Virus record (IMG/VR): IMGVR_UViG_3300045988_172839
Coordinates: 128,001-192,000 of that record
Reading direction: 5' to 3' (one strand)
DNA length: 64,000 bases
Source: a virus
This document shows, piece after piece, positions 1 through 64,000 of the stretch. The notes beneath the pieces were generated by a model. That model had not been told where the DNA came from. It was given only the letters and a program-made list of their open reading frames with translations, and ran no database searches. The stretch's first letter is position 1. The number at the start of each line of letters is the position of its first letter. The translations under genes were made by a program, and so were the position numbers.

Positions 1-171
1 TGTACAAATCATCTTAGGCATAGCAACATCTTCAAAATCCTCCAAACCTACATACAAAAATGTACCACCCAATTCATCTTGGTTTTGGTGTAACTCAGAG
101 TAGGTACGAACTAAATCCTTAATCTTCTTGGGAAGAATGACTCCCTCTTTTTTCTTCTGTCTTTTGTTCAT
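1..171 (-). CDS. hypothetical protein, 5' portion only (gene continues past window start)
   Basis: ATG at 171 opens a frame that stays open to base 1 (MNKRQKKKEGVILPKKIKDLVRTYSELHQNQDELGG...). It overlaps the methylase 3' end and has a weak RBS. Not in the ORF track. Confidence 0.3.
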   Translation of the reverse strand, partial: MNKRQKKKEGVILPKKIKDLVRTYSELHQNQDELGGTFLYVGLEDFEDVAMPKMICT

Positions 172-943
172 CTTTTATCTTTACTGCTTTCCGTATTCTT
201 TCTTTGGCAATTTCAAAATATTGCTCAGTTAATTCCATCCCAATAAAGTTACGATTAGTATTTACGCAAGCTACTCCTGTTGAACCTGAACCCATGCAAT
301 TATCCAAGACCAAATCTCCCTCATTGGTGTAAGTCCTTAACAACCACTCTAACAAAGCTACAGGTTTCTGAGTAGGATGATAGTTTTCTTTCTGCTGATC
401 CTTTGCGAAGATCTGAACACTGAGGGGATACCGCTCTGTCGAGTCGTAATCGACTTGACTTTCTCCGTAAGAGTTGTAATTGGAAGCTAAAACTTCTGAT
501 TTCCCTTGGTGTCTCTCTACAGACTTTTTCCTACTAGACTTACTCGACACCTTACGAGGATGCCCCTTTGTCATCTGAGGGTTATAAGTTGGTAACTTCT
601 TATAGAAAACCAAAATATTCTCATGCGCCTTCATAGGCATCTTTTTAGCATTTAGAAAACCAGTTGGAGCAGTCTTTTGCCAAATAATTTCATATCTGAG
701 GTCTTTGAGGTTGGATACACCTAGAACCTTGTCAAATGGAGTTTGTGCGAATAAGAGAATGGCACCATGCTCTTTAATAATGCGGTTGTATTGTTCCCAA
801 AGGGAATCCAAATCAAGTACGCTATCCCATTTATTCCTTGTTGTTCCGTAGGGTAAGTCACACAAAATTAAATCGATACTTTTGCTTGGGATGTTCTTCA
901 TCAGCTCTAGGCAATTACCTTGTCTTAAATCAATAGAAACCAT
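119..943 (-). CDS. DNA N6-adenine/N4-cytosine methyltransferase, beta-class, orphan
   Basis: N-terminal catalytic DLPYG (DPPY-type) motif, HPTQKP, and C-terminal AdoMet loop LDNCMGSGSTG. This motif order is typical of beta-class amino-methyltransferases. Confidence 0.9.
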   Translation of the reverse strand: MVSIDLRQGNCLELMKNIPSKSIDLILCDLPYGTTRNKWDSVLDLDSLWEQYNRIIKEHGAILLFAQTPFDKVLGVSNLKDLRYEIIWQKTAPTGFLNAKKMPMKAHENILVFYKKLPTYNPQMTKGHPRKVSSKSSRKKSVERHQGKSEVLASNYNSYGESQVDYDSTERYPLSVQIFAKDQQKENYHPTQKPVALLEWLLRTYTNEGDLVLDNCMGSGSTGVACVNTNRNFIGMELTEQYFEIAKERIRKAVKIKDEQKTEEKRGSHSSQED

Positions 944-946
944 AAA

Positions 947-1282
947 TTAAACCATACCATTCAAAGAAGCAACTGACTCTGGAGACAAATAGAGTGAAAG
1001 AGGATTGTCAGAACAACTTCTATAGCTACTTTCAAAGTGTAAAGGAGAACCATCATTATACCAGTAACGACCACCCTTATAACCTTCAAACGGTCTTCCA
1101 GAACTTAAATCATCAAGTGCATCTGCTAATGTTGAAATAGGTACATAATCAGAATCCACATCAAAATACAAGGCAGGTTCAGAATAGATACCCCTCCAAG
1201 AACCATAACCCTTCAACGGACGAACCATCAAAGGTAAAGTTGTTAAATATTTGCAATAGTTAATATCCATTTTTAACTCCAA
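947..1282 (-). CDS. hypothetical protein
   Basis: ORF track; TGGAG RBS 6 nt before the ATG; sits directly downstream of the promoter at 1305-1333. Confidence 0.7.
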   Translation of the reverse strand: MELKMDINYCKYLTTLPLMVRPLKGYGSWRGIYSEPALYFDVDSDYVPISTLADALDDLSSGRPFEGYKGGRYWYNDGSPLHFESSYRSCSDNPLSLYLSPESVASLNGMV

Positions 1283-1304
1283 ATCTTATATAAAAATTCA
1301 TTTT

Positions 1305-1333
1305 AGTATATCACAAAAACCTTTTAAAGTCAA
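1305..1333 (-). promoter_or_regulatory. sigma-A-type promoter TTGACT-17-TATACT
   Basis: On the plus strand: agtata at 1305-1310 and agtcaa at 1328-1333, with an exact 17-nt spacer. Confidence 0.75.
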
Positions 1334-1337
1334 GGGT

Positions 1338-2069
1338 TTACGCAATAAAATCAACTAACCAGTTTGAACGTAAGTAACTTACAAATTCAAAATCTGCAAT
1401 CAAATCAACATTCTCATAACACACCTTTAGTTTAGCTAAAAACCCGTCTAACTCTTCCAACGTAGGAAACCAAAGGAAACAGTTTAAATCATAATAATTA
1501 AACAATAGATTGACAAACAAAGTTGCAGTTCGCTTATTACAGTCATGGAAATATTGTCTTCGCATGAGAAAAAGATAAAACATTAAAATTTGCTCAATTT
1601 TTACATAACGACTGGTATCATCAGAACTTAGTATTTCTTGTACAAAAGACAATAAATCGTTAAATTCAGCTTGCGCTTCTTTTCGAGATACCGAAGGTGG
1701 TTGATAAGTTGTACCACTTATGTTTACTGGGAAATCCTCAGAACGGAAATGACCTTCTAGTTGAGGTTTGTCAGTAACTCCGTTTGAAATCAATTCATGT
1801 AAGTCCTCAATAGCAGTTATGCTCACATCAGAAGAACTAAAGAGATGTACAAAAACCCACGCTTCATAAAGGTTTAGAAGTTCTTTTCGGGTTTTGTAAC
1901 CAAAAGGAAAGGGCTCAAAATGAGTATTTACACATTGTTGGACTTCTTGCTTTGTTAAAACGTAATCTTCAAAGACAGTTGAATGAGCTACGATGTCCAG
2001 TAAATTATGTCCTAAGTAGTCTTGAAATAGAGTAGTCATACTGTTTACCTCAATCTTCTTTGTAATCAA
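1338..2069 (-). CDS. Fic/DOC-like protein with degenerate active-site motif
   Basis: RRQYFHDCNKRTATLF aligns with HxFx(D/E)GN(G/K)RxxR, but the catalytic His position is Gln. Motif-level call only. Confidence 0.4.
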   Translation of the reverse strand: MITKKIEVNSMTTLFQDYLGHNLLDIVAHSTVFEDYVLTKQEVQQCVNTHFEPFPFGYKTRKELLNLYEAWVFVHLFSSSDVSITAIEDLHELISNGVTDKPQLEGHFRSEDFPVNISGTTYQPPSVSRKEAQAEFNDLLSFVQEILSSDDTSRYVKIEQILMFYLFLMRRQYFHDCNKRTATLFVNLLFNYYDLNCFLWFPTLEELDGFLAKLKVCYENVDLIADFEFVSYLRSNWLVDFIA

Positions 2070-9121: not shown

Positions 9122-9584
9122 ATCTTATCTCCTCAACTACATCAAAACCGAAACCCGAAGAACGAACACCTAAATTTAAGCACTCAACTTGTTTAAGGGT
9201 TGCTACATTTTCAACTAGAGAAGTTAAAATATGGTTTAAATCATAATCAAGTAAGTTGGGGAGGTAATACTCATTTGAAACACGCTTTCGTTTTCCTGTT
9301 TTAGTATTACATGACACACTTTCAAACGTACCTCTATCCAATTCCTTGTCGAAATAAATCAGTATTTCATGAATCAAGTCGGTATCTAAGTTTGTCTCAA
9401 TCGTGTTTTTCAAGAGTCTTAGTCGAAATACAGAATCTTTTAGTAGAATTTGAGTTTTATACCTGACTGAGACTTGGGATACCGAACTCATAGGTTTAAT
9501 TTCAGCACCACTTACAAGTAACTTAAACCCCTGATATAAATAGTACCAAAATTCTGTTGTCTGCTTGTTAGTTAATCTATTCAT
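9114..9584 (-). CDS. hypothetical protein (possible family A member)
   Basis: ORF track; similar size and position; family membership uncertain. Confidence 0.6.
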   Translation of the reverse strand: MNRLTNKQTTEFWYYLYQGFKLLVSGAEIKPMSSVSQVSVRYKTQILLKDSVFRLRLLKNTIETNLDTDLIHEILIYFDKELDRGTFESVSCNTKTGKRKRVSNEYYLPNLLDYDLNHILTSLVENVATLKQVECLNLGVRSSGFGFDVVEEIRFE

Positions 9585-10108: not shown

Positions 10109-10522
10109 TTAATCTTCCAAAGCACTCAAGAAACAAGCTACTTGAAAATCCGTAGAAATCGACTCTACCAAAATCTCAAAACCACGTGTAAATTGTGGAG
10201 TTCCTTTTGCTGCATATTGGACAATATGCTCCAAAGTTTTAGCTGGTAACTCACTTTCTGGTCTATAAAGACTACCTGAGAAGAAAACATCTAAGTCTGA
10301 AGATACCGAAATGTGTAAATCATGAACTCGTTTACCTGATTTCTTATTTTCCAACGAAAGGTAAACTAAGTCTTTTGCAAGTTCTACATAAACTAAGTAT
10401 CTATCAGAAACCTCGATTGTTTCTCCGCTAACTTCATCTGCTAAACCAATAACCTTATCAAAGGTTTTCTCCAAGGTTTGTTGGAGTTGTTGTCTTTTAG
10501 TGTTGCTCATCTTCTTGCTCAC
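10109..10522 (-). CDS. hypothetical protein (possible family A member)
   Basis: KRQQLQQTLEKTFDKVIGL N-terminal helix; similar size. Confidence 0.6.
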   Translation of the reverse strand: MSKKMSNTKRQQLQQTLEKTFDKVIGLADEVSGETIEVSDRYLVYVELAKDLVYLSLENKKSGKRVHDLHISVSSDLDVFFSGSLYRPESELPAKTLEHIVQYAAKGTPQFTRGFEILVESISTDFQVACFLSALED

Positions 10523-11489
10523 TTTCTAAAGCTATTTTAATCTGCTCCGCAATCCTTGATACCACCGGTACCGCAACGCTATTCCCCACTTGTTTGTACA
10601 AGTGACTATTTGCCATTTTCTCTGGGAACTTATACGAACGAGGGAACCCTTGAGTGTTAAAGCACTCTCTTGGAGTCATTTTCCGAATATCACCACCAAA
10701 GGTACGAATAATAGGTACAATGTTACCACCCATACCCATTCCTGCCATCAGAGTAGGTACTACTCCACTCTTATTTTCACGGACATATTGACCTCTTCTG
10801 TACTCATAAATTGAATTACTAGAAGTAATCTCAGAGTCTAATAAAGGATAGTAGTGCTTATCTTCACGGTAATAAAAGACCTCATCTACTGGGTTTTCAA
10901 AGTCAATTACATCATGAATCCTAACTGTTAAAGATATTTCTTCTGGGAAAACAAATCTATCGGAAACTTCTTTATCTCTGAAACCGACTATGTAAATACG
11001 TTCTCTACCCTGAGGGATATTGCCATACTTAGCTGCGTTTAAAACTTTATAATGAACATAGTAACCTAAGTCCTCCAAAGTCTGCAAAATCACTTTAAAT
11101 GTATTTCCTTTATTGTGACTAACTAGGTTCTTTACATTTTCTAAGAAAATTACTTTAGGTTCCTTTTCTTCAATAATGCGAGCTAACTCAAAGAATAAAT
11201 TTCCTCTACCTTTCTCATCATGGAAACCTTGTTAATACCCCGTTATGGAGAACGCTTGGCAAGGAAAACCACCCATAATAACATCAACATTTGGAATATC
11301 TGAGGCTGAAACTTCTTTAATGTCTCTACCATCCAACTGAACATGAGGAAAGTTTAAAGCAAAAGTTTCTCTCGCTTTTTCATCAAATTCATTTGCGTAG
11401 ATTGTTTTAAACCCTTGTTCTTCAAACCCTAAATCAATACCTCCTACTCCTGCAAAGAAGGAAGCACACGTTAATTCTAAACTGCTCAA
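10497..11489 (-). pseudogene. DNA (cytosine-5) methyltransferase interrupted by one in-frame TAA (pseudogene or read-through)
   Basis: FFAGVGG (motif I), GGFPCQAFSITGY, then TAA at 11232-11234, then in the same frame QGFHDEKGRGNLFFELARII..FLENVKN (VI), QGRERIYIVGF (VIII) and GNSVAVPV (X). Confidence 0.8.
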
Positions 11490-11503
11490 AATTTACCCCT
11501 AAT

Positions 11504-11908
11504 CTAATTTGTGTAAGCCAACAAAACCTTTAACCCTTTGATAAAGGCATCAACAAAGGCTACTGTAGGTATATTCTCTATGTAGTTGCGAATGATGGAT
11601 AACGAGAGGTTGTCATATCTTTCGTAAGGTATCCTATTAGAAATCTCTGTTTTAGGGTAACTATTGCTTGTAATGTACCAACCATTTAATCGCTCTACCT
11701 TGTAATCGTAAGCATTGAATGAAATACTATGTGATTTCTGTCCCATACGAACTACAATTCCTAAGTAAGTCCAAGGCGTATCTTGAACCTCAAAATAAGT
11801 ATTATCCGAAACTTTGAACAAACCATACACTTTAGCACCTGTGCTATGTAGCTGATGTAGCCGATACAGTAACTCTGCTAATAAATCTTTCTTTTCACCA
11901 ACAACCAT
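11504..11908 (-). CDS. hypothetical protein, tandem paralog family A
   Basis: KDLLAELLYRLHQLH at the N-terminus and VAFVDAFIKGLKVL at the C-terminus. Confidence 0.7.
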   Translation of the reverse strand: MVVGEKKDLLAELLYRLHQLHSTGAKVYGLFKVSDNTYFEVQDTPWTYLGIVVRMGQKSHSISFNAYDYKVERLNGWYITSNSYPKTEISNRIPYERYDNLSLSIIRNYIENIPTVAFVDAFIKGLKVLLAYTN

Positions 11909-11949
11909 TCATCTGACCTCTAAAACTTCAAATTTAACTGATCTTGTAA

Positions 11950-12372
11950 CTACCACTTAACCATATCATTTGTCAAAACAACTAAATCTAAAGAAGTACA
12001 CAAGTTTGTAAGGCGTTCTTTAGATGTAATTGAGTTCACAATCGCATCTAACTCAGAACCACCCAAAATCAAACTATTTTTATTTACAAAGATAGTAAAC
12101 ATAGTAGAAGTATCTATTTTATTGTTAAGATGAGACCAACCACTCACGCTATATACATCCCCATAGTCATCCACAGAGAAGTAATAAGCAAGGTTATCTT
12201 TACAATAAAGCCCAACATAAAACCCTTTAAGATGAGTTTTATAAGAAAGTGTATATTTTCTATTGTTTAAAGGTCTTTGCGTGTCCTCATAAGATACAAA
12301 TTTGGACACTTCTTCTAGTATGTTCTCAACTGATCTTTTAAGACGTTTCACTTCTTTATCTGTAAACTTCAT
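11950..12372 (-). CDS. hypothetical protein, tandem paralog family A (close to 12873..13310)
   Basis: PLNNRKYTLSYKT...AYYFSV...SGWSHL...ITSKERLTNLCTSL compared with PLNNQKYTYSYIQ...AYYFYI...RGWSYF...ISSKERFINLYTAL. Confidence 0.75.
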   Translation of the reverse strand: MKFTDKEVKRLKRSVENILEEVSKFVSYEDTQRPLNNRKYTLSYKTHLKGFYVGLYCKDNLAYYFSVDDYGDVYSVSGWSHLNNKIDTSTMFTIFVNKNSLILGGSELDAIVNSITSKERLTNLCTSLDLVVLTNDMVKW

Positions 12373-12387
12373 ATTTTAACCTCTCTC

Positions 12388-12885
12388 TCAATCTAAAACC
12401 ATATCAAATTTAAACCCATAAAACTTAGTCAGTATAACAGAAATTAAAACATCTAGTTCCATTTCAAACTGTTGTGATAAAGGTATTGAAACCTTCTCTT
12501 CAATCGAAATTGGAAGTTCATCACAAGAAAGATACCCTCTCATGGTTTTATAGGGAACCAACTCAAACCCTTGAGTCTGACATTTGAAGAATTGAATAAC
12601 TCGAACTGAAGTTAGTTTCTTCTCAGTAAACTTAATTTCCACATGAAAGTTCTCCGTAGTTTTAACAACTATTTGGGTCTTCCCTACAAAATTTACCTCA
12701 GTCACATTTAGAAAAGGTACTAAACGCAAAAGAAGTTCTTCTGTCAGAGTCCACTCTCCTCTTTGTATAGAATAAGCAATAAAAGAGTCTCTGTTGAAAA
12801 TATAAGGGTTGTAGGGAAAAGTAACCCCATCTGACACAACTAATAAACCATCTTTTGAATACATCTTAAACCTCAGTCTTTCCAC
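12388..12885 (-). CDS. hypothetical protein
   Basis: ORF track; embedded in the family A array but without the family termini. Confidence 0.65.
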   Translation of the reverse strand: MERLRFKMYSKDGLLVVSDGVTFPYNPYIFNRDSFIAYSIQRGEWTLTEELLLRLVPFLNVTEVNFVGKTQIVVKTTENFHVEIKFTEKKLTSVRVIQFFKCQTQGFELVPYKTMRGYLSCDELPISIEEKVSIPLSQQFEMELDVLISVILTKFYGFKFDMVLD

Positions 12886-17888: not shown

Positions 17889-20114
17889 TTAATCTTCTAA
17901 AGATTCATAAATTCGTTTAAATAAGACTTCCAAACAAGGAACTGCAATCGAGTTACCTGCTTGTTTGTATAACTGCAAATCTGATAAACCTGTCTCTTTT
18001 GCTTTTTGGTAGTCTTCGTAAGAGAACCCCATAAACTTCCAACACTCGCCGGGAGTCAGATACCGCATAGAATAAAAACCACTTAAAGGTTTCTGCTCTT
18101 CTGTCTGATTATCAGACAACATCAAAGCCAAATTGAACAATCCTTGAGGTTTGTTTACAATTTTCTCAGACAACCATAATACGTTTGGGTCTTTTGCAAG
18201 TTCTTCTCGTGTTGAAGAAAGACCACGCTCATATTCTACAAATGGACGAGCTAGAGGGTCACTTGCATCTGAAGGGTACAACTTAGACGGAACTTCACAA
18301 CCTACACCCTCTACAACTGTTTTAGGGTACTTATAGTCAGAAGCCAACATGCAGCTTACTTTCCCTGTCGGAAAAAGGCACTGAGTTCGCATTCCAATCG
18401 ACTCTTTAATGGTTGAAAGGTCTATGTCTTCTAAACCTTGTTCTTTCAATTTGTCGATTTTGTAATCAACTGGAACGTTAAAACGACCGAGGTAATGCAC
18501 GATACCCTTATCTCTTAACTCATAAGTAAAGCGGTCAATGTTATACTGCTTGTGCCACTTCTTTGTATCTAATTCACTACCTAACAAGGGAACCATAGTT
18601 GAACCATTATCAAATCCATTTGGAAAACGATACGGTTTATGTTTCCCTAAAATAGAGACTACGAAAATACGCTCTCTATTTTGAGGGAGTCCAAAGTCTT
18701 TTGCATTAAGGACTCCATAGTAGTTTGTATAACCTAAACCTCTCAAAAAGGAGAGCCAAGAGTGAAACCCATCTCGAAACTTAGCACTGTTTAGAGCCTT
18801 TACATTTTCTAATAACAAAACCTTTGGTTTCTTACCCTCAATCAATCGCTGACACTCCCATAAAAGAGAAGACGAAGTTCCTGAACCCTTTTCAAATCCA
18901 CGTTGTTTTCCTGCAGAACTTAAATCCGTACAGTTGTGTACAATACAGTTCTAAACAGTAAATGAATGATTATCTTTGACACTAATATCATAAACACTAG
19001 CTTTGTATGGAGTGTAACTAGCCGACTCTACGGATACCCAAACATAATCATCCTCAAAAATCATAGAGTTTGATTTAGTTTCCAAGTCACTAAACTCGAT
19101 ACGATAGTGTTCGTTGATAGACTCGCTAATTGTAAACGGTACTTTGTAAGCTTTCAACACTAACTGACTTATACCGTAGAACAATTCTTTACCTGTAACA
19201 AATAAAGTAGAGGTAAAATCTACGGTTTGTCCTGAGACCCTCTGGTAGCCCCATAGAAGCGCTCGAATTTGTTGTAAGGGTAAATCTACCCACTGAGATT
19301 GAAAATGCAATCTGTGCCGTTTTAAGGCGCTCTCACGCAAATAATTTACAAGAGCGCAATTTCGGATACGGAACTCAAGCTGTGAGTTACCTAGTTCTAA
19401 ACTTGAAGTATCAAACAACCCCTCAGTTAAGTCTCTTAATAAGTGATAATGTTTATTATCTACTTTCAAAATCAATTCTTCGCCCTTTACCATGAAAGGA
19501 TAAACAAGTAAGACACCTAATAAGCGCCAAAAATCTAAGTTCTCAAAATGGCTCTCTAGTGATGGATACCCTTGTGGGAGTTTAGACTCTGAGTTAATTG
19601 GAAACCCTAAGTAATCTGAGGTACTTAGCTCCCTCGCTTCTTTCCATTGTGGAGAGTTTAAACCCTCTTCAGATTTACTACGCACATAAAAGGGATGGTT
19701 TTCTGTGGTTGAAATATCTCTCGTAAGTTCTGAACTTACTGAAAATAAAGGCTTTAAACCTTGGTTATAAAAAGCAGTAACCTCTTTATATTCACCTGTG
19801 TGAGTTAAAACCGAGTCACCTACAACCACATTCTTAATAGGAACGTAACCTTTGTCTTTTACAAAGACTAAAGAATCTCCTGTGAAACAAGGGAAAGAGT
19901 AAGTAAACAAATCAAAATCTGGTAAATCCTCTGGCCACAACTTTGAAATGTCTCCAAAGTTAGGAGTTTCCCCATGAATAGCTTCATAAGCCTGATGGGC
20001 GAATTTGTCAATTTCGGATACACCGACTACTTCGTAATCAACACTTAAATTTCTCAGAGCCATGTGTTGAGAACCAACTCCTGCAAAGGCTTCGAACACT
20101 TTTAAATGTACCAT
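17889..20114 (-). pseudogene. DNA (cytosine-5) methyltransferase split by an intein at the catalytic Cys, with an in-frame TAG inside the intein
   Basis: N-extein FEAFAGVGS (I) ...YSFP, then intein CFTGDSLV...VYDISVKDNHSFTV-TAG-NCIVHN, then C-extein CTDLSSAGKQRGF...LLLENVKAL (VI), QNRERIFVV (VIII), GNSIAVP (X). Probable start is ATG 20114. Confidence 0.8.
18933..19889 (-). mobile_element. intein (Hint domain with degenerate LAGLIDADG-like insert)
   Basis: Starts with Cys of CFTGDS (block A) and ends with IVHN followed by the +1 Cys. VYDISVKDNHSF matches block F. 319 codons including TAG at 18951-18953. Confidence 0.8.
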
Positions 20115-20118
20115 ATTG

Positions 20119-37828: not shown

Positions 37829-37853
37829 GTTAATTAGTCCCTCTTCCTTTAAA

Positions 37854-42783: not shown

Positions 42784-44991
42784 TCAAAGTTTCAAATCGA
42801 AGTCTGTGAACGCTCCAAGTTGTTCTTCGACCTTGGCTTTTTGCATGCGTTCTTTTAAACTCAATTCCTGCTTCAATTTTACACCATTTAGTACCACTCC
42901 GTCAAGTGGAGTCCACGATTTTAACGGGATACCCATTTCTTTCAAGAATGGTGAAGCTTTTCCTCTACGAGTGAGGTAAATCGTAACTTCATCACCACGT
43001 GTTCCTGCTACGAAGTGAACCCTACGTTCTTCTTCATAACTTAGCTCTCCACTCAAGGTATAAGGAAAGACACCATCAGAATCATCAAAAATAATGTTGA
43101 CATTGGCTTCACGACCTTTAAAGCTGAACGGTGTAGCAAAGGTCAAGAGCGAAGTTCCACCTCTTTTTGCTTCACGGATTTTATTGTTGATAAAGTCCAT
43201 GTTGCTAAAGAAGTCTGTAACTGTGTCGCTTTCTTCCGCCAAGGTTGAAATCGTGCCTACTACTTCCGCATTAGAAGGTTCACCCCAATAAAGAACATGA
43301 GCCAAAAGCTCTTTGAAGAGAACCATTTCTCCGGGAAACTCTTCTCCATAGGTCTTTCTCAACTTGTCTACCAAAGTAGCCATAGACTTGAGACCATATT
43401 CTTGCGCAATGAAATCCAAGTAAGCGTAGTTATCGGAGAACAAGATATTTTTGTTCTCTGGAATAGCGTTCATTAGGCGCTCTGCGAGAGTCTTGGCATC
43501 CCAAAGTTTCAGCTCTGGTGCTAAGACTTTCAAGTTGTTCTTAATATCAACTAAACCACGACCACGCACCATTTCAATGAGGTTCCAAACCTTTTGATAC
43601 CGCGCGGTTCTGAAATCCCTTACGTCTCCTAGTAAGTTGAAGTCTCCTTGGCGCTTAACTGCGTAAAGAATAGAAGACGGAGAGTAAGTGAAGTTCACTC
43701 GTGACTGAACTGCAATAGTCTTTCCTTCAGCTAAATACTTATCAATCAACTGCAAAGAAGCGTCAGCCATATCTTTTACAGAGTCAAATTGGTAAGCTTC
43801 AAGGACTCCAACCTCTTTAAAGGAGCGAAGAGAGTGTTCGTAGCGATTTGAGTTCTTCTCAATCGACTTGGTAATGGGTTTCAAAATGTTTGAAGGGCAA
43901 CGGTAAGATACCGAGAGTGGGTACTTAGTTGGTTGGTACTCCTTGTCGAACCACTCCATGACCTCTGGGTTTGACCCACGGAAACCATAAATCGACTGGT
44001 CTGGGTCTCCTACAATAACCACACGTGGACAATTCTCGAAAATAGGTTTCAAGACTTGGTACTGCAACTCAGACATATCTTGCGCTTCGTCCAACATGAA
44101 GTATTCGTAGCGGTATTTATAGAAGTTGACCCAAGCCATTTGAACTGGATCATCTTTCTTCTCTACGACCATGTACTCGTAAACAAGAGACATCAAATCA
44201 TCAAAATCAATGACGTTCATAGAAGTCTTCAAGGCTTGGTAATCTTCAACTACCATAGGAAGTAAATTTCTTGGGAGGTTCAAGCGTTTTGCCGTTTCGG
44301 CTGCTTCACCAAATTGGTACTCCGTAATCGAGCAGTTACGGTAGTTTGAAATAATTGCAGCCAAGTCTCTTTTATCTTGAAGAGAAATGTAGTTACTTCC
44401 TTCTTCTCCCAAATCATGTTTACGGAAGAGACGACCCATAATTGCATTGAAAATACGAGAACCCTCAGAGTCTCCGCCACCAGTGTCCAACATTTGAACA
44501 TAGTCTGATTTTGACTTATCTGTGAGGTTAAACCCACGAAGTCTCAAAAGTTCAAAGAACTCTGACTGTAGTGTACTGAATGTGAGGTCATTTGTGGATA
44601 CCCCTGAGAGACCTAACTTAGCGAAAGTGCGCTCTACATTCTGTTTAATCTCTTCTGCTCCTTTGCTGAGGAAAGTTGTGACCCAAGCGACTTTCTTTCC
44701 TCTCTGAGCTGGAGACAAGCGACCAATCGTTTTATCCTTTGCTAAAATCAATGAAATCGAAGTGGACTTACCTGAACCCGCAGTCGCAAACAACTCTGTG
44801 CGACCTTCTGAGCGAATAATTGGCTCTAGTTCTTCCAAGTTATAACCTTTAGAAGCGACTAGCTCCAAATACTTCTTCATATTTTCTTCGTAAATTTGTT
44901 CCTCAGTAATTTGTTGCTCAGAATTTGCACTAGGTTTTACACTAGCAAAACCTTTGTCGTTACTGAGGTTGTCGAGTGCTGATTTATACAT
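42784..44991 (-). CDS. UvrD/Rep/PcrA-type SF1 DNA helicase
   Basis: ATAGSGKST (Walker A), FMLDEAQDMS (II), VIVGDPDQSIYGFRG (III), VSYRCP (IV) and EERRVHFVAGTRG (VI). Confidence 0.9.
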   Translation of the reverse strand: MYKSALDNLSNDKGFASVKPSANSEQQITEEQIYEENMKKYLELVASKGYNLEELEPIIRSEGRTELFATAGSGKSTSISLILAKDKTIGRLSPAQRGKKVAWVTTFLSKGAEEIKQNVERTFAKLGLSGVSTNDLTFSTLQSEFFELLRLRGFNLTDKSKSDYVQMLDTGGGDSEGSRIFNAIMGRLFRKHDLGEEGSNYISLQDKRDLAAIISNYRNCSITEYQFGEAAETAKRLNLPRNLLPMVVEDYQALKTSMNVIDFDDLMSLVYEYMVVEKKDDPVQMAWVNFYKYRYEYFMLDEAQDMSELQYQVLKPIFENCPRVVIVGDPDQSIYGFRGSNPEVMEWFDKEYQPTKYPLSVSYRCPSNILKPITKSIEKNSNRYEHSLRSFKEVGVLEAYQFDSVKDMADASLQLIDKYLAEGKTIAVQSRVNFTYSPSSILYAVKRQGDFNLLGDVRDFRTARYQKVWNLIEMVRGRGLVDIKNNLKVLAPELKLWDAKTLAERLMNAIPENKNILFSDNYAYLDFIAQEYGLKSMATLVDKLRKTYGEEFPGEMVLFKELLAHVLYWGEPSNAEVVGTISTLAEESDTVTDFFSNMDFINNKIREAKRGGTSLLTFATPFSFKGREANVNIIFDDSDGVFPYTLSGELSYEEERRVHFVAGTRGDEVTIYLTRRGKASPFLKEMGIPLKSWTPLDGVVLNGVKLKQELSLKERMQKAKVEEQLGAFTDFDLKL

Positions 44992-45179
44992 TTTTCTCTT
45001 CTTTCTTCTATTATATAGTGAGACTGAAATCAGTCTAAAATCTTTTCTGAATAATTAAAATCTAATTTGTTATGTTTATACTAAATTGAGAATAAGGTGA
45101 AAAACTGTGAAAAATCCAAAATCCGAGTATTAGTAAGTTACTACCAAGTTAGTGCTCGGAAAAAGGTAAAATTTCATAA

Positions 45180-45960
45180 CATTGAGGAGATACCTACCAA
45201 GATGTAATTAAATCAAGGGTTTTGCTTGATTTTCTATAAGAAAATAATGAAAATACTTGTCAGATAAGGGATTTACTTGTTTTCTGAGGAAAAATACCTA
45301 CTCATTTTAGAAAATCCAGTTAAAAGTGGCAAGTGAAAACCAAAATTGAGGTCTTCTTTTAGATACCTTCTAAGTGGGGTTGAGAAAAGAGGTTTAATCT
45401 CTTGTGTGCCAAGGACTTTCAAAGTTGTTGCTAGTGAAATTTGAGTTTTAAGTGGTAAGCTCTGAAAAAACTTTGGAGGTATGTTTAGATACCCTCTTCT
45501 CTAGGTTAGGAAAACTAGGTTTAACCCAAGCGTCCCAAAGAGTTTGGAAAGTTTAAGCACGTGTTTTCGATTTTTAACTTCCTCAACCTTAACTAGAGAA
45601 ATTGAAAAATCGAAAAGTGTGACTCGATACCCTCTTGTAACTTTGACATAAAAGGTTCAAAACCTAGTAGTACCAAGTAATAGAAAGCCTACCATCTACT
45701 AAAACTTATTTGAACAAAAGAAAATACTAATTCGACCGAGAGAAAATTTCAAGCTAGGATGAGATACCCTCAAAACCCTGTTAAATCAAGGAAATTAACT
45801 TTTAAGTTAGTTAAACAGTTGCTATCACTAGGTTTCTGAGAACTTGACCTAGTTTGCAATCAAAACCTCATAGTTATTTTATCAATTTGGAGAAAATTGC
45901 GAGGTGTGATGAGATACCCACTTACTAACTTGACAAACCTTATTAAATCAAGGTTCAACA
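45180..45960. repeat. non-coding region with six degenerate units of about 125-175 bp, each centred on GATACC
   Basis: GATACC at 45189, 45362, 45488, 45626, 45763 and 45913. Three units carry TTAAATCAAGG 18-30 nt downstream. No ORF on either strand. Confidence 0.6.
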
Positions 45961-45979
45961 CACTTTCACCTAAGAGAAC

Positions 45980-49033: not shown

Positions 49034-49175
49034 AAAAAACTACTATTTTATGATTTACTTTTAAAGCACAAAATAAATCATTCTACTTTTCTGTACTTTA
49101 TCCTCTCTGTAAAATTTTCAGTCTGAAATCTAGCTATATGACTAGAAATTTTCTTTGCTGAATTTCTTAAGGTCT

Positions 49176-49204
49176 ATTATACATTATTTTAAAATAAAAA
49201 TCAA
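49176..49204 (-). promoter_or_regulatory. sigma-A-type promoter TTGATT-17-TATAAT
   Basis: attata at 49176-49181 and aatcaa at 49199-49204. It would give a leader of about 140 nt to gene 48272..49033. Confidence 0.55.
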
Positions 49205-49386
49205 GTAACAAGATGTACAAAATCTAAATCAAAATGAGATAAGTTTGGTATTTTTTGGACTAAAGTAAATAATTTGGATTGAAATAGAGTTTACTATAAA
49301 GAAAAACAAGTTTGAGGATACCGAATAGAGGATTTGGGGAGTTCTTTCAATAGTAAAAAAAAACTGAAATTTAAAATTGACAGTTT

Positions 49387-49428
49387 GTTCTCTGTTCTCT
49401 GTTCTCTGTTCTCTGTTCTCTGTTCTCT
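49387..49428. repeat. heptanucleotide microsatellite (GTTCTCT)x6
   Basis: Six perfect tandem copies. Confidence 0.95.
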
Positions 49429-49862
49429 ACTTTCCAAATTCGACCCAACTCAAAAATCTCAGAACTGAAAACTGAATTAGAAATGCACGTGGACTGAGGA
49501 TACCGCAAGGGTGACTAGAGTTTGCTCTGATTTTCTTGGAATTAGAATGCTCCATGAACCTCTACTAATCTTACTGAAGTTTAAGTTACTTACTTAAATT
49601 AAGGCTTACAAAGAAGGAAGACCGCAAAACAAATCTGAAGCCCAACGGAGGTTGAGCGTTCCTATTAACAAAGTTAAAGCCAAAAGTAAAGACCAAAACT
49701 CAAAGCGAGGATACCACTGAGAGGTAGGTTGAGGAGTTGAAGTTTTAAGTTCAGACCTCAGACATTAAACCTGCACAACCAAGCAAAAAGCCACCAAATC
49801 CTTACGGAATTGGGGCGTTCCCTAACCTTAAAACGAAAAATCAGCCTTAAACTTGAAAAACC

Positions 49863-50239
49863 TATGACACAATTTAAGGAAACCTAAGACAATATATTCT
49901 CAATCTAGGACAGAAATTGAGAGAATTAGGACAAATAAATCTCATTTTATGACAAACTTTAACCGTTTTAGGACAAACAAACCTTAATTTAGGACAAAAA
50001 GGCAAAGATTTATGACAAATTTAAACAAAGTTATGACAAATAAACCTATTTCTACGACAAATAAAACCGTTTTTATGACAAAAAGACAAAGACTTAGGAC
50101 AATTTTAAGTAAAGTTAAGACAAAAATAACTAATCTTAAGACAGATTTTAGTACAATTAGGACAAGTGTATGACAGAATTACCTAATCTTAGGACAAAAA
50201 GTCTAAAATCTATGACAAAAATAAAAAGAGTTACGACAA
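49863..50239. repeat. iteron array, 19 direct copies of TA(T/G/A/C)GACA(A/G) at 21-bp spacing
   Basis: Octamers start at 49863 and at 49885 then every 21 bp to 50158 (14 in register). One is offset by 11 bp at 50169, followed by 50190, 50211 and 50232. Confidence 0.9.
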
Positions 50240-50449
50240 GTCACAACTACTGCTTTTCAGAAGCCTAAATACAAGAAATAAGGGAGAAAAAGACACAAAC
50301 TTCGCAAAAGTCTTGAAAATCTAGATACCGCTGAGAGGGTTTAAGAACTAAATTTAGTTCTCAAAATCAAACCGCAGACATTTTTCCCTAAAATCAAGTT
50401 TAAAGGCTCTCATTTGCCCCGTGTCGCATTTTAAATTGAAGTTGGACAT

Positions 50450-50458
50450 ATTATACCA
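50450..50458 (-). promoter_or_regulatory. possible extended -10 promoter TGgTATAAT without a good -35
   Basis: attata at 50450-50455 plus cca at 50456-58. It would transcribe toward the iteron array. Confidence 0.35.
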
Positions 50459-50509
50459 TAAGAGGTTAAAATCAAATCTGGTGCAATCTGGGGCTTTTTA
50501 GAGAAATAG

Positions 50510-50535
50510 AAAAAGTGAAGACTAAAATCTTCACT
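50510..50535 (-). terminator. rho-independent terminator
   Basis: Stem agtgaaga/tcttcact with a 6-nt loop and a U-run, 3' of gene 50666..50944. Confidence 0.7.
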
Positions 50536-50665
50536 TATCTTCTACGTTTATTAAGGTTATGTTTAGGTTCATCTTCAAAACAGTCTGTGAAATCAACCTC
50601 TTTCGAACGATATAGGAAACCCAAACTAACCAACATAAGGACTGCAAGTAATAACCACAAAGTCT

Positions 50666-50944
50666 TTACTCCCAACCATCATCTGAGTTTGCTGCACTCT
50701 CATAGTCTACTTCAGCTCCGTCTCGGAAGCTCTTCTTAGTGAGGAGAGAGTAAACCCACAAACCAAAGTACCAAATAGTCACAACACCAACTACAAGTCC
50801 GAGTGGAATCGTAGCTACAATCACATCAAGATTGGAAAGACCTGTGAGACGGAGAACGAAAAGTACAACAACTGCAAGCATTGTAAGAATCATTGTCGTC
50901 ATTAAAATCGCTAATGGTAAGTTCCATTTGTTGATAAATTTCAT
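50666..50944 (-). CDS. small membrane protein
   Basis: Two to three hydrophobic segments and an acidic C-terminus. Confidence 0.65.
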   Translation of the reverse strand: MKFINKWNLPLAILMTTMILTMLAVVVLFVLRLTGLSNLDVIVATIPLGLVVGVVTIWYFGLWVYSLLTKKSFRDGAEVDYESAANSDDGWE

Positions 50945-50959
50945 TGTTTTTAACCTTTC

Positions 50960-51256
50960 TTAAAGCCTACATTTATATTCGCGCCCTGCGAGGTGATACC
51001 GCAATAAGTCTGAACCTTGGGTAACCAGAACCTCTCTAGTTACTAAATCAATAGTCTGACCTAAACCATGTTCTAATAAGAGTTCGTAGGCTTCTTGCAG
51101 AACCTTGAACTCCTCATGAGACCCACCTTCAACATCCGGGTGAACTTCTTTGGAGCGCTTTTTATACGCTTGTTTCAAACTAGTTTGTTCTACGGTTATA
51201 ACACCTTCAAAGCCGAGAATCTTTAAGGCTTTTTTAATACTGCTTAATTCTATCAT
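50960..51256 (-). CDS. J-domain (DnaJ-like) protein
   Basis: LKQAYKKRSKEVHPDVEGGSHEEFKVLQEAYELL contains the HPD tripeptide in a J-domain helix II/III context. Confidence 0.8.
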   Translation of the reverse strand: MIELSSIKKALKILGFEGVITVEQTSLKQAYKKRSKEVHPDVEGGSHEEFKVLQEAYELLLEHGLGQTIDLVTREVLVTQGSDLLRYHLAGREYKCRL

Positions 51257-51283
51257 AATCTATCTAAACGTGCAAGAGTTTCT

Positions 51284-55911: not shown

Positions 55912-55999
55912 AGAAACCCCAAAGAAATTTGGGATACCCAAAGAAATTTGGGATACCCAAAGAAATTTGGGATACCCAAAGAAATTTGGGATACCCAAA
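55912..55999. repeat. tandem 19-bp repeat, four full copies plus one degenerate copy, each containing the palindrome TTTGGG-ATA-CCCAAA
   Basis: GGGATACCCAAAGAAATTT repeated, with GATACC starting at 55933, 55952, 55971 and 55990. Lies between the stop of 56007..56744 and ATG 55879. Confidence 0.9.
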
Positions 56000-56006
56000 G
56001 GTAGTT

Positions 56007-57166: not shown

Positions 57167-57195
57167 ATTATATCAAAAAAGAGGAAATTTGTCAA
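57167..57195 (-). promoter_or_regulatory. sigma-A-type promoter TTGACA-17-TATAAT
   Basis: attata at 57167-57172 and tgtcaa at 57190-57195. Confidence 0.85.
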
Positions 57196-57197
57196 AG

Positions 57198-57233
57198 AAA
57201 AAGAGAGGATACCGCTTGGTAAACTCTCTTTTT
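57198..57233 (-). terminator. rho-independent terminator with GATACC in the loop
   Basis: 10-bp stem aaaaagagag/ctctcttttt. The 16-nt loop contains GATACC at 57208-57213. Confidence 0.7.
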
Positions 57234-57240
57234 ACATTCT

Positions 57241-57654: not shown

Positions 57655-57683
57655 ATTATATCAAAAATGTCTTATTTTGTCAA
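57655..57683 (-). promoter_or_regulatory. sigma-A-type promoter TTGACA-17-TATAAT
   Basis: attata at 57655-57660 and tgtcaa at 57678-57683. Confidence 0.85.
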
Positions 57684-57685
57684 GC

Positions 57686-57722
57686 AAAAAGAGAGGATAC
57701 CGCTAGGTAAAGCTCTCTTTTT
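57686..57722 (-). terminator. rho-independent terminator with GATACC in the loop (near-copy of 57198-57233)
   Basis: Same 10-bp stem. The loop gataccgctaggtaaag contains GATACC at 57696-57701. Confidence 0.7.
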
Positions 57723-57724
57723 GC

Positions 57725-58114
57725 TTATAAAGGTAAATCTAAAGGACTGTGAACTATCATAGTGGCTTTAAACCCATCTTTTTTCTTGTTTTTAACAACA
57801 CCTTGAGCAACTTCCTGAGAAGAGTAAAGACCTATAGACTTAGAACCCGTTGAAGTCCAATCATTAGTCTCAGAGTCGTAATTTCGGTCGTCAATGCGAA
57901 CTTCGTATTTAGGTCTTACATAGCGAATGAGATAAGTATTTATAATAAAAGTGACACCTACATGGTTAGAAACCAAGGCAACATCTACCACATAATAACC
58001 GCGAGCTTTTAGAACATCTAATTTAGACTGAAGTTGCTTTTCGTCAAAGTCTGAACCTGCTTTTTCAAGAGTAACATACATAAACTCTATATCTGCTTTT
58101 GTGAAAACTTCCAT
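57725..58114 (-). CDS. hypothetical protein
   Basis: ORF track. Confidence 0.7.
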   Translation of the reverse strand: MEVFTKADIEFMYVTLEKAGSDFDEKQLQSKLDVLKARGYYVVDVALVSNHVGVTFIINTYLIRYVRPKYEVRIDDRNYDSETNDWTSTGSKSIGLYSSQEVAQGVVKNKKKDGFKATMIVHSPLDLPL

Positions 58115-62281: not shown

Positions 62282-62313
62282 TGAAATTTCCTTTCAAATA
62301 AATTACGCTTATG

Positions 62314-62342
62314 ATTTTATCATAAAATACTTGGTTTGTCAA
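62314..62342 (-). promoter_or_regulatory. sigma-A-type promoter TTGACA-17-TGaTAAAAT
   Basis: atttta at 62314-62319 and tgtcaa at 62337-62342. The TG of the extended -10 is the TGA stop of the upstream gene. Confidence 0.7.
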
Positions 62343-62952
62343 TAGAATCAAGCGTTCCGAAGTATAACAAATTCTCCAGTTTCTTACCCCATGCAGTTCC
62401 CTTAAACCAAACCACATATAAGTCAAGTGAACCTAAAGAAATGACTACAGATAAAAGGAATGTCAAGAAAACATAGAAAATATAACTAAGTGGAGGTATC
62501 ATCGGATGATTGGGTCTTGGTAAGTTAGCTTTCAAAAAGTCAAAAAGCCCATAAAAAGCAAGACCACTTACGGTAAAAGCAAAAATAGGAAGTGACATAT
62601 AACCTAAAACAAAAGCAAAAACCTGCAAAAGATACCGAATGTACTCTTCTTTGGGTTTGTTCTTGTACAAAGTTAGTTCAAAATCGTCACCTACTTTGAC
62701 CCACTTATAGTAAGTGTAATCAAGGTTCAAATCCTCAATAACCTCTGAGAGTAAACCTAAACTAAAAAGCTCCTTTGACAAAATTCGAAGAGTTAACTTT
62801 TTTGATCCGCATAATGAAGGAGAAAAACTCAAAGTCTTAGTCATTACTTCAAAAACCTTATCTCTCACCGATTGAGACATAGGAGAGCTAACAATATCTT
62901 TAGGCAAGAAAACATAAGCATCATCGAAATAAGTTTGAATAAAATCAATCAT
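62320..62952 (-). CDS. membrane protein, paralog of 62945..63541
   Basis: FELTLYKNKPKEEYIRYLLQVFAFVLG compared with FLLTLYKTRPEAISRLYLAILLRGLL. Confidence 0.7.
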   Translation of the reverse strand: MIDFIQTYFDDAYVFLPKDIVSSPMSQSVRDKVFEVMTKTLSFSPSLCGSKKLTLRILSKELFSLGLLSEVIEDLNLDYTYYKWVKVGDDFELTLYKNKPKEEYIRYLLQVFAFVLGYMSLPIFAFTVSGLAFYGLFDFLKANLPRPNHPMIPPLSYIFYVFLTFLLSVVISLGSLDLYVVWFKGTAWGKKLENLLYFGTLDSIDKPSIL

Positions 62953-63541
62953 TTTCTACCACCTTATCAAATCTTATTGTATGTTCAAATTCTTTTGCGA
63001 CTTTCGAATAGCGAAACAGTACGCTTGCAACCGTATTAGAACTTATTAGCACAAAGAAGACTGTTAGGAAGTTCAAGAGAATTGTAACTAAAAAAGACGA
63101 AGCAAACTGCGATTTTACAAGTTCCAAGCCGGGAGACAATACCTCAAATATCAAGGAAGCCGTCATCAAAGCAAGTATCAACCAAAGCAACCCTCTCAAT
63201 AATATAGCTAAATATAGCCGAGAAATCGCTTCTGGGCGAGTTTTATATAGAGTGAGTAGAAAGTTACCTTCAAACTTCTCAAGGCGCGTGTAGGCGATTT
63301 TAGAGCCGATTTTTGATAGTGCTTTTGAAAGCAAACTATAGTTGAACTTTGAAGGGGTTAAAAGAGTGAATGTCAAGCTCTCTAAGTTATTCTTCTCCAT
63401 AAAGTCTAACTGAGGAGTTAATTCCTCAATCATAAAACCCAGTGTTTCTCTATCATATTCTGCTTGACGGTCTTTCTTTCGTTGTTCTAATTCTTTCAAT
63501 TTGCGATTTTCATCGCCAAATAAAAATCCTAACCAGAACAT
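62945..63541 (-). CDS. membrane protein, paralog of 62320..62952
   Basis: ATG 63541 after GGGGGAGGA. Confidence 0.7.
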   Translation of the reverse strand: MFWLGFLFGDENRKLKELEQRKKDRQAEYDRETLGFMIEELTPQLDFMEKNNLESLTFTLLTPSKFNYSLLSKALSKIGSKIAYTRLEKFEGNFLLTLYKTRPEAISRLYLAILLRGLLWLILALMTASLIFEVLSPGLELVKSQFASSFLVTILLNFLTVFFVLISSNTVASVLFRYSKVAKEFEHTIRFDKVVEND

Positions 63542-63543
63542 TA

Positions 63544-63960
63544 TCAAAGTCCTCCCCCAAGCTTAAATTCCAAGGATACGGTGTGACTTCCCCTAAGTCC
63601 TGTAATCGTAATTGTCTCAGAACTTGCAGAGAAACCAAATGGAAATTGTAAGGCTTGTCTTACTTCTCTTGTAGTTAAAGGTAGCAAGTCAGTAAACCAC
63701 ACATGAACCTCAGTGTCTTGCAACTCTGTGAAATCTAAGTGGTCTGAGCTGCGCATTACTCGTGCAATGTCAGTAGGTGGAATAACTGCAACCCTTACCC
63801 AATTAGGTGCAAGTGCTTGAACTACTGCTACTACTTTACCTCTTAGATAAACATAAGTATGGTAAACAAAACCATCAGACATGGGGTTAATTGAACCCTC
63901 AATCTTAAAATCAAACTCATAGTCTTTAAGTTTACCATAGCTTCCAAATTCTTCACTCAC
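63544..63960 (-). CDS. hypothetical protein
   Basis: ORF track. The GTG start overlaps the end of a further upstream ORF that runs off the window. Confidence 0.6.
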   Translation of the reverse strand: MSEEFGSYGKLKDYEFDFKIEGSINPMSDGFVYHTYVYLRGKVVAVVQALAPNWVRVAVIPPTDIARVMRSSDHLDFTELQDTEVHVWFTDLLPLTTREVRQALQFPFGFSASSETITITGLRGSHTVSLEFKLGGGL

Positions 63961-64000
63961 TAATGCTTGTTTGATAAAAGCTGAAAGCTTTCTGAACGCT

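Follow-up and report, generated by a model that had tools for sequence, protein, structure and literature searches.

A dense, selected polar DNA word on one strand of a giant oral element suggests an undescribed strand-reading signal

The 64,000 nt of IMG/VR record IMGVR_UViG_3300045988_172839 analysed here (the window) correspond to about 138–202 kb of a contig of 238,733 bp that comes from a metagenome of the human mouth, and all 99 genes of the window lie on the minus strand. Throughout this stretch one short word recurs with a single polarity. GATACC, which reads GGTATC on the coding strand, is the top strand-asymmetric hexamer in a hexamer census of the window, and an exact count gave 112 copies on the plus strand and four in the opposite orientation. 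An earlier note on this DNA, made by eye from the letters, had put these numbers at about 110 and three. All 17 of the GATACC positions that it listed are correct, as are its GGTATC copies at 9381, 11628 and 62495; the copy at 1614 had been missed.

On the plus strand the word is found at 427, 1187, 1687, 2250, 2686, 3108, 3348, 3838, 4636, 5269, 5698, 6649, 7005, 8013, 8306, 8996, 9478, 10302, 10558, 12531, 13964, 14565, 14830, 15993, 16230, 17109, 17390, 18059, 18501, 19033, 19565, 20732, 21023, 21711, 21947, 22762, 23380, 23941, 25246, 26527, 27056, 27340, 27457, 28261, 28591, 29118, 29764, 29932, 30921, 31167, 31715, 32139, 32774, 33232, 33744, 34046, 34731, 35721, 36040, 36360, 36690, 36784, 37223, 37535, 38573, 39498, 39881, 40289, 41749, 42277, 42417, 42928, 43596, 43907, 44597, 45189, 45362, 45488, 45626, 45763, 45913, 46539, 46759, 47104, 47636, 48119, 48376, 49317, 49499, 49710, 50324, 50995, 51625, 52697, 53359, 54230, 54583, 55189, 55698, 55933, 55952, 55971, 55990, 57208, 57264, 57696, 58627, 59002, 60829, 61057, 62066 and 62631. 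The four opposite-orientation copies, in which GATACC lies on the minus strand and GGTATC on the plus strand, occupy 1614–1619, 9381–9386, 11628–11633 and 62495–62500, the third of them inside the largest word-free gap (10558–12531).

The abundance of the word was compared with several null models. Markov chains of orders 1, 2 and 3 predict 7.2, 11.8 and 18.5 copies of GATACC, respectively. Shuffling synonymous codons gave 33.4 ± 3.7 copies, with the 18 fixed intergenic copies counted in, and shuffling codon order gave 28.8 ± 3.0; the excess over these codon-preserving shuffles is more than 20 standard deviations, and the enrichment proposed in the earlier note thus stands. On the coding strand GGTATC falls 30, 31 and 33 times in frames 0, 1 and 2, and the other 18 copies are intergenic, where the density is higher than within genes. 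The equal use of frames and the intergenic copies exclude a codon or peptide origin, and the constraint is at the nucleic-acid level, as had been supposed. The copies share a loose context: a purine precedes GATACC in 86 of 112 cases, C or G follows it at +6 in 95, in line with the base preference seen by eye, and G is avoided at +7. The extended form is therefore (R)GATACC(S) on the plus strand, or (S)GGTATC(Y) on the coding strand, at about one per 570 bp. None of the one-mismatch variants of GATACC is enriched in the window. Two further flanking features had been overstated: a GA or GAG prefix, said to mark about a third of the copies, is present in 29 of 112 (26%), and the long intergenic extension described as frequent occurs once as GAGGATACCGCTNAG and five times as GAGGATACCGCT.

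The copies are also spaced more regularly than chance would have it. Gaps average 576 bp (median 520 bp, maximum 1973 bp), which agrees with the even distribution and the largest gap of about 2 kb noted before, and their coefficient of variation (CV) is 0.63, compared with 0.985 ± 0.09 in simulations, of which 0 of 5000 gave a value as low. Gaps shorter than 100 bp number two, where 16.7 are expected. Individual sites are, moreover, retained over evolutionary time: in alignment blocks of relatives with 70–85% identity, 29 of 33 word sites are kept, compared with 22–38% for other hexamers, and individual word sites are thus under purifying selection. These data show that (S)GGTATC(Y) is a selected, DNA-level polar word covering one strand of an element of about 239 kb.

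One might object that the word is a by-product of coding or mutation bias, or of the avoidance of head-to-head Type III restriction sites, as for CAGCAG/CTGCTG in phage T7. One-directional genomes do yield strongly skewed hexamers (T7 has CTGCTG 36 times and never in the other orientation), and in single 20 kb pieces our score of asymmetry times enrichment is matched by codon-repeat words, e.g. GCCGCC, in ordinary genomes. Because the score does not discriminate at 20 kb, what carries the case is the lack of a frame preference, the constancy of the word from locus to locus, its even spacing and the conservation of its sites. The T7 word or a coding bias parts from GGTATC in several ways: CTGCTG is codon-driven (30 of its 36 copies share a frame) and its spacing is random (CV 1.01), whereas GGTATC, at 30/32/33 across frames and a CV of 0.66 in the same comparison, is frame-independent and even, exceeds codon-preserving shuffles, reaches a higher density outside coding sequence, is retained at individual sites and does not flip in an inverted gene described below. 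Avoidance alone, furthermore, cannot give a tenfold enrichment. We regard a by-product as barely credible.

The word extends well beyond the window. Near-identical contigs of 230–251 kb carrying the window genes are present in many samples, and contig 3300007654_000008 is, by its coordinates, a circular permutation of the window contig, from which we infer that the element is circular. By walking through relatives we sampled about three quarters of the roughly 240 kb oral element as a series of loci, designated here by L-numbers (L213–L220 being those of the plasmid pXO16, discussed below). These loci are one-directional too, bar one methyltransferase gene and a few small open reading frames (ORFs), and the polarity of the word does not flip in any of them; the earlier note had asked whether it would flip with transcription or replication direction beyond the window. 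Many IMG/VR contigs of 160–284 kb belong to the same clade and carry the same word, typically with 35–40 copies versus 0–1 per 21 kb, and it is absent from large contigs at a greater evolutionary distance that encode a related ribonucleotide reductase.

Within the clade the word varies slightly, drifting slowly from one lineage to another. The window-like oral group has S-GGTATC-Y at 220:7 in 128 kb. In a second oral group (L144, L208, L211 and L186; IMGVR_UViG_3300008664_000005 and relatives), GGTATC stands at 99:2 in 77 kb and takes the form GGGTATC; here an extra polar word, GAGGGT, occurs at 91:8 (15 expected), overlaps GGGTATC only in part, and could represent a second reader or a specificity in transition. 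A third locus, L323 (IMGVR_UViG_3300008589_000004, 161 kb), has (T)GGGTATC at 35:0. It also encodes homologs of the gyrase B/A and NAD-ligase of pXO16 with 28–37% identity, which makes it a bridging lineage; in their sampled parts, the other oral members are without gyrase, and their match to the pXO16 ligase is weak (~23% identity). As a side observation, GATTTA is skewed 37 to 1 in 21 kb of L143/L144 (IMGVR_UViG_3300007297_000006 and IMGVR_UViG_3300008664_000005), with 38–40 versus 8–11 in other members.

We then considered whether the polarity belongs to the DNA strand or to the transcript. The informative case is a C5-methyltransferase gene (Pfam E = 1.6e-62) that lies on the opposite strand about 5 kb downstream of the ribonucleotide reductase gene in several relatives, flanked by oppositely oriented genes. 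Three copies of the word lie within it, all of them oriented as in the rest of the genome and placed identically in three relatives, while its own sense has none; its closest homolog from outside the family has no copy within the gene. In addition, none of the opposite-strand ORFs that do not overlap a sense ORF carries a gene-sense copy. The retention of the genome-wide orientation in the inverted gene shows that polarity belongs to the DNA strand and not to the mRNA. In L163, L154 and L185 the inverted gene appears split or degraded.

This result bears on an RNA-level or transcription-coupled role, one of the candidates raised earlier, in which GGUAUC would act in processing, stability, pausing or on ribosomes. 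Over more than 99% of the sequence the word has the sense of the mRNA, and terminator-like hairpins contain some of the intergenic copies. In 16S rRNA, the universally conserved 790 loop reads A-GAUACC-C, to which GGGUAUC in an mRNA would be complementary. However, all three conserved copies in the inverted methyltransferase gene follow the genome, and its own mRNA would carry no GGUAUC, which speaks against a transcript signal barring antisense read-through transcription. Copy number follows length rather than gene number, with four copies about 500 bp apart in the 2.2 kb gene for a UvrD-like helicase (42784–44991, minus strand); the word is dense in long non-coding regions; and compositional skew follows the DNA strand through the inverted gene. 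A signal in RNA is thus very unlikely, and this candidate is disfavoured.

The strand that bears GGTATC has a GC skew of +0.127 and more T than A, at third codon positions as well as between genes, and inside the inverted gene the third-position skew keeps the sign of the genome (+0.18 to +0.38). Such a bias at neutral sites, G over C together with T over A, typifies the strand that spends the most time in single-stranded form, i.e. the lagging-strand template. Mobile DNA gives a further orientation mark. Of at least seven known independent insertions of IS605-type TnpB genes, found at different sites in different relatives, 7/7 are co-oriented with the word polarity (L006 7364–8524, L124 18291–19514, L132 14693–15850, L137 8319–9518, L196 3055–4212, L198 17440–18549 and L318 11814–12920). 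IS200/IS605 transposition reportedly targets the lagging-strand template, as Ton-Hoang et al. are said to have described in 2010, and the co-orientation of TnpB fits this, although selection against head-on genes could contribute to the pattern. In a single such insertion, the 1.2 kb of newly acquired DNA holds one copy of the word.

What kind of element carries the word? The DNA had been taken for a phage. We found no close DNA match among known, sequenced phages, and a scan of about 70 larger ORFs from the sampled three quarters of the element, most of them without a family match, returned no capsid, portal, terminase or tail gene. What it did return was an FtsK/SpoIIIE-family ATPase, a VirB4/TraG-like P-loop protein, SNF2 and DnaB-like helicases, a ParM-type actin, the UvrD-like helicase, many DNA methyltransferases and the TnpB genes. 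Surface proteins are encoded as well: LPXTG adhesins of the antigen I/II type (1657 and 904 aa) together with a GtfA-like glycosyltransferase (L211 10001–19501; L209), the adhesin gene having a somewhat lower word density. Together these suggest that the host is Gram-positive and resembles Streptococcus, and that the element has a role in aggregation comparable to the one in pXO16.

The plasmid pXO16 (pBTHD789-1, NC_018516.1) is a plasmid of 350 kb from Bacillus thuringiensis sv. israelensis that conjugates by an aggregation-mediated mechanism and whose coding sequences run in one direction (PMC6199540). The full 350 kb can pass within about 4 minutes, pXO16 is known to conjugate by way of single-stranded DNA, and it mobilises plasmids, chromosomal DNA and DNA lacking an origin of transfer (oriT) with no recognised relaxase (PMC6199540). 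We likewise identified no relaxase in either the oral element or pXO16. By tblastn and BLASTP, nine backbone proteins are homologous between the two, with identities of 27–39% and in similar order: a VirB4-like ATPase (E = 6e-107), a DEAD/SNF2 helicase (3e-78), the UvrD-like helicase (30% identity, 5e-77; 3e-80 in relative L091), a 546-aa protein with ParB-N and HNH domains that matches a pXO16 HNH endonuclease (33% identity, 2e-68), the DnaB-like helicase (4e-54), the FtsK-like ATPase (~29–30% identity, tblastn 2e-43 to 5e-50; Pfam 1.4e-12), whose top database match is in pXO16, a TOPRIM protein corresponding to the DnaG core (39% identity, 7e-49), the ParM-type actin (window 31628–32851, minus strand; 27% identity, 1e-37) and a CHC2 zinc-ribbon protein (1e-16). 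Based on these nine proteins and their order, we file the oral element as a distant pXO16-like element; it is probably not a phage but a relative of this conjugative megaplasmid.

pXO16 has a polar word of its own. On its closed circle (349,599 bp), TACCCC occurs 658 times antisense to the genes and five times in the other orientation, where about 61 and 12 are expected from composition. Every 25 kb bin holds 40–55 copies, and the polarity switches nowhere on the circle. Gaps average 531 bp (CV 0.71, largest 2071 bp), copies fall in all frames with an intergenic density two to three times higher, and the context is M-TACCCC-W, or (W)GGGGTA(K) on the coding strand. The two words have the core TACC in common (GGTA on the coding strand). 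Because there is no switch on a closed circle, a reader of the word would have to travel one way round the whole replicon. On pBtic235, a second large plasmid of the same Bacillus strain, TACCCC stands at 10 versus 0 in 64 kb, about the chance level, and the word therefore belongs to the element and not to the host. A host Chi sequence was rejected as an explanation on this ground and on the absence of AGCGG enrichment from the window: the Bacillus subtilis Chi pentamer, to which the earlier note had linked the word, occurs 26 times against 27 expected, and 15 of the 26 are overlaps with the word itself. That the word holds steady within a lineage yet differs between distant ones points to a reader that the element itself encodes.

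Our results suggest an undescribed strand-reading signal, and the backbone offers a candidate reader. In the oral element the CHC2 zinc ribbon of DnaG (PF01807) is detected at 1.3e-7 (31.7 bits; cut-off 24.9) and in pXO16 at 1.9e-11. The 256-aa TOPRIM protein aligns with structures of the DnaG catalytic core from Aquifex and E. coli (2au3, 1eqn and 1dd9), including the EGxxD and DxD motifs. Both elements thus have a DnaG-type primase that is split into two genes far apart, with the DnaB-like helicase close to the zinc-ribbon gene. The zinc-ribbon protein is WP_000365721 in pXO16, with its oral homolog at L193 20581–21207; the TOPRIM protein is WP_000389279 in pXO16, with its oral homolog at L130 6802–7572. 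Among sequenced plasmids and phages, close homologs of the primase core are found in pXO16 only, and in two scans of representative genomes the primase matches were ordinary chromosomal dnaG loci with at most 36% identity. The zinc ribbon is the template-reading domain in DnaG and in T7 gp4, and ribbon and catalytic core can act in trans. The T7 gp4 site, 5'-GGGTC-3', yields pppACCC, and DnaG of Firmicutes uses 5'-YTA-3'; GGTA would resemble such primase sites in form.

We therefore favour, tentatively and with rather less than even confidence, a reading in which the words are distributed start sites of the element's own primase on the strand that becomes exposed as a single strand. The stand-alone CHC2 zinc-ribbon protein and the separate TOPRIM core, together with the DnaB-like helicase, would read the word on single-stranded DNA, and each copy would mark where a primer begins on the template for lagging-strand synthesis, at a fork that moves in one direction only. 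On a GGTA template, the T would template the first ATP, the 3' A would stay uncopied and the 5' G's would be copied, giving a primer that starts pppACC. If the primase required 6–7 bases, chance would supply sites only every several kilobases, and selection would add and keep frequent, even ones. Selection for priming would then account for the tenfold enrichment, the ceiling on gap length, the scarcity of redundant neighbours, the frame independence, the intergenic excess and the conservation of sites. The word strand would also be the strand transferred in conjugation, if transfer displaces that strand. In this regard, the pXO16 literature describes a correctly oriented single-strand origin as crucial for plasmids mobilised by pXO16, which implies that priming of the entering strand is limiting in that transfer system.

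A bolder version, which we consider possible yet doubtful, is that the word acts as a priming code specific to self, in effect a single-strand origin distributed along the whole replicon, such that the split primase, with an unusually long template specificity of 6–7 nt, primes only DNA bearing its own word. Under such a code, an entering strand of 240–350 kb might be made duplex fast and the lagging strand replicated, both independently of the host; this consequence is as doubtful as the code itself. No greater likelihood attaches to a co-evolution of the word with the zinc-ribbon protein, which would have led to GGTATC in the oral elements and GGGGTA in pXO16.

Several observations weigh against priming. 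The link between primase and word is an association only, and the direction of the fork, the transferred strand and the reading of the word by the primase are all inferred, the first two from compositional skews. The word in the oral clade is unchanged over zinc-ribbon identities of 45–100%, being only sharpened to GGGTATC at 45% (L323 versus the window-like group), which is no clean covariation. Known primases do not reshape genomes in such a way, and priming would be an extreme new case; in phage T7, the gp4 primase site (G/T)(G/T)GTC occurs 187 versus 215 times, without strand bias or real enrichment. The predicted single-strand accessibility of the sites is raised only marginally (0.53 versus 0.49, p = 0.03) and is no different from that of random positions. 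Finally, the opposite orientation is mildly depleted, with four copies against about 10 expected in the window, seven in 128 kb of the window-like group, and five against about 12 expected from strand composition in pXO16, which a priming model would not lead one to expect. Other conserved proteins could be readers instead, namely the FtsK/SpoIIIE-like ATPase, the UvrD-like helicase and the ParB-HNH nuclease.

The first two of these proteins could make the word an orienting signal for a DNA motor, in the manner of KOPS, SRS or Chi, with the FtsK/SpoIIIE-like ATPase as the presumed conjugative pump or the UvrD-like helicase as the motor. A polar word that is G-rich on a G-rich strand, has a near-absolute skew and is uniform over the replicon would suit such an enzyme, both candidates are conserved in the two elements, and the depletion of the reverse orientation would be understandable if a word facing the wrong way made the motor stall or turn back. 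The 4-minute transfer of 350 kb by pXO16 (PMC6199540) also fits a pump. On the other hand, the C-terminal part of neither FtsK-like protein matches the winged-helix gamma domain that reads KOPS and SRS, at Pfam E values up to 5, with a divergent domain being possible. Nor is there a polarity switch on the pXO16 circle or in the sampled part of the oral element, and the word is a 6-mer that recurs every 0.55 kb. Known orienting words are 8-mers that occur about once per 10 kb and switch polarity at the terminus. Guidance does not need even spacing or a gap ceiling, and the plasmids and chromosomal DNA that pXO16 mobilises are not built in this way (PMC6199540). We consider a motor-orienting word unlikely.

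The third protein, the 546-aa ParB-N plus HNH protein, might instead place strand-specific nicks at the word, either as T5-like interruptions or as a distributed transfer origin from which the same strand is always displaced. It is a conserved backbone gene, the short exact word with its R and S flanks resembles the sites of nicking endonucleases, and if the word were avoided on the opposite strand, double-strand breaks would not arise, in keeping with the mild depletion. A frequent short nick site could also explain how pXO16 mobilises DNA without a relaxase or oriT (PMC6199540). Yet hundreds of conserved, even sites far exceed what a transfer start needs, and nicks at intervals of 550 bp would leave the plasmid fragile in single-stranded form. 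T5-like phages have only a few nick sites, and these show no enrichment. Nicking is, in our estimation, improbable.

The abundance of modification genes raises another explanation, namely that a methyltransferase or other enzyme modifies one strand at the word, either to label the DNA as self or to ward off restriction. The DNA methyltransferase genes number at least six in about 90 kb, one of the N6/N4 type and at least five of the C5 type (window 119–943, 10497–11093, 17889–20174 and 36596–37897; L123 11231–12343; L183 10001–11206). The C5 gene at 17889–20174 is split by an intein (Hint/intein domains), and another is the inverted gene discussed above. Restriction pressure appears strong in both elements. 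The window has GGCC five times (67 expected) and GATC 38 times (210 expected), and GAATTC, CAATTG and AGTACT not at all (21 expected each); pXO16 has GATC once (1004 expected), no GGCC (248 expected) and four CGCG (248 expected). This palindrome avoidance indicates very strong restriction-avoidance selection in the two elements. A modification target, however, needs neither tenfold enrichment nor even spacing nor a single orientation, and the listed features of pXO16, taken from PLSDB gene tables that are incomplete, include no annotated DNA methyltransferase. A modification site is accordingly a far-fetched reading. With respect to the other intein, it is of the LAGLIDADG type and lies in the small subunit of ribonucleotide reductase (L123, 19931 onward), and within intein-coding DNA the word keeps its normal spacing.

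In the broader sense, the proposal of the earlier note that the word is polar for the sake of a translocating or priming enzyme is supported, and from its list the primase is our best, if tentative, explanation, given that primase parts are encoded by the element and that the word lies on the strand whose skew suggests single-strand exposure.

Several local features of the window contain the word in unusual settings. Upstream of the UvrD-like helicase gene, a non-coding region of 1 kb (44992–45979, minus strand) is made of six loosely repeated units spaced by 126–173 bp (mean ~145 bp), with six copies of the word versus none in the other orientation in 988 bp. On the coding strand, most units have a AACCTTGATTTAA-like box, one GGTATC and a stretch of AATTTT about 16 nt after it. 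The units could be regulatory sites, small RNAs or replication-related sites; a reading as promoters was rejected, since by eye the spacing to -35-like boxes is inconsistent. A second non-coding region, of 2.25 kb (49034–51283), has TGTTCTC six times at 49386–49428 and, at 49926–50239, about twelve 21-bp iteron-like TTAnGACAA repeats, all in the same orientation. From these repeats it is a candidate replication-origin or partition control region. Word polarity runs unbroken across it (49317, 49499, 49710, 50324 and 50995), and pXO16 has a comparable gap of 1.7 kb adjoining its UvrD-like helicase gene. The assembly NODE_7 (230,744 bp) ends near this region, by an estimate of coordinates.

At 55918–56000 (plus strand), a 19-bp in-frame tandem repeat of CCCAAAGAAATTTGGGATA within an ORF has 4.4 copies with one word per unit; near-identical relatives differ in copy number, with five in L126 and one in L128. 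A terminator-like hairpin, AAAAAGAGAG...CTCTCTTTTT, is read from the sequence at 57190–57235 (minus strand), with GGTATC in the loop or 3' arm. Similar hairpins with A-tract, stem and T-tract are seen at 57680–57725 (copy 57696) and 34700–34770 (copy 34731). In hairpin-associated intergenic copies generally, GGTATC lies in the loop, lies in the 3' arm or abuts the stem. Rfam and tRNA scans of the window gave no matches.

Chi, KOPS/SRS and primase sites are among the few short sequences that organise a whole replicon, and polar words as a class are known. What is new here is the density, the near-absolute polarity over a whole replicon, the specificity for the element and the existence of two distant members: a hexamer at about ten times chance, 97–99% on one strand, even and conserved, across elements of 240–350 kb in two very distant hosts. 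The word constrains about one in 100 sequence positions, in all reading frames, and we know of no described polar word that is as dense or as absolute. Literature searches, with the 2015 pXO16 genome paper outside their scope, found no published description of either word. The findings tie widespread human oral 'viral' contigs to pXO16, whose replication and conjugation remain poorly understood, and since pXO16 is culturable and genetically tractable, the question of the word is directly testable. If the priming reading were true, this would be the first case in which the long specificity of a primase has remodelled the genome that encodes it, as well as the first replicon-wide single-strand origin, and the word would be a practical sequence signature for finding the family in metagenomes.

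The known systems compare as follows. pXO16 and the oral element are alike in being giant, circular and one-directional, with surface adhesins, extreme palindrome avoidance and a polar word about every 530–570 bp on the same strand relative to the genes. They differ in habitat (a soil/insect Bacillus host versus the mouth), in the word itself, (W)GGGGTA(K) as opposed to (S)GGTATC(Y), and in the many DNA methyltransferases, the ribonucleotide reductase and the inteins that the sampled parts of the oral elements have, unlike pXO16. Inocles, giant extrachromosomal elements of oral Streptococcus, are likewise giant circular elements of human saliva that encode LPXTG surface proteins, but they are reported to have two replichores with ORF orientation switching at origin and terminus (PMC12340149), whereas the present element is one-directional throughout the sampled three quarters. 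Identity with Inocles is not supported, as the sampled loci contain no switch in ORF orientation.

As for words, the interruptions of T5 are similar in lying on one strand and in having a short consensus, and a conserved HNH nuclease gene is present here. The T7 pair CAGCAG/CTGCTG, the EcoP15I site, is similar in that all 36 copies have one orientation in a genome transcribed one way. KOPS (FtsK), SRS (SpoIIIE) and Chi (RecBCD/AddAB) are polar, skewed, G-rich words read by a translocating enzyme, and in this they resemble the word. They are host-wide 5–8-mers, however, about 10–20 times sparser, with 75–90% skew and a switch at the terminus, whereas this word is element-specific, has no switch and comes with no detected gamma domain. 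The sites of T7 gp4 and DnaG (CTG; CTA/TTA in Firmicutes) would be alike as short words read on a single-stranded template by a zinc ribbon. Those sites are 3–5 nt long and neither enriched nor strand-biased; the word described here is 6–8 nt long, tenfold enriched, 97–99% on one strand, evenly spaced and conserved, in elements whose primase is split.

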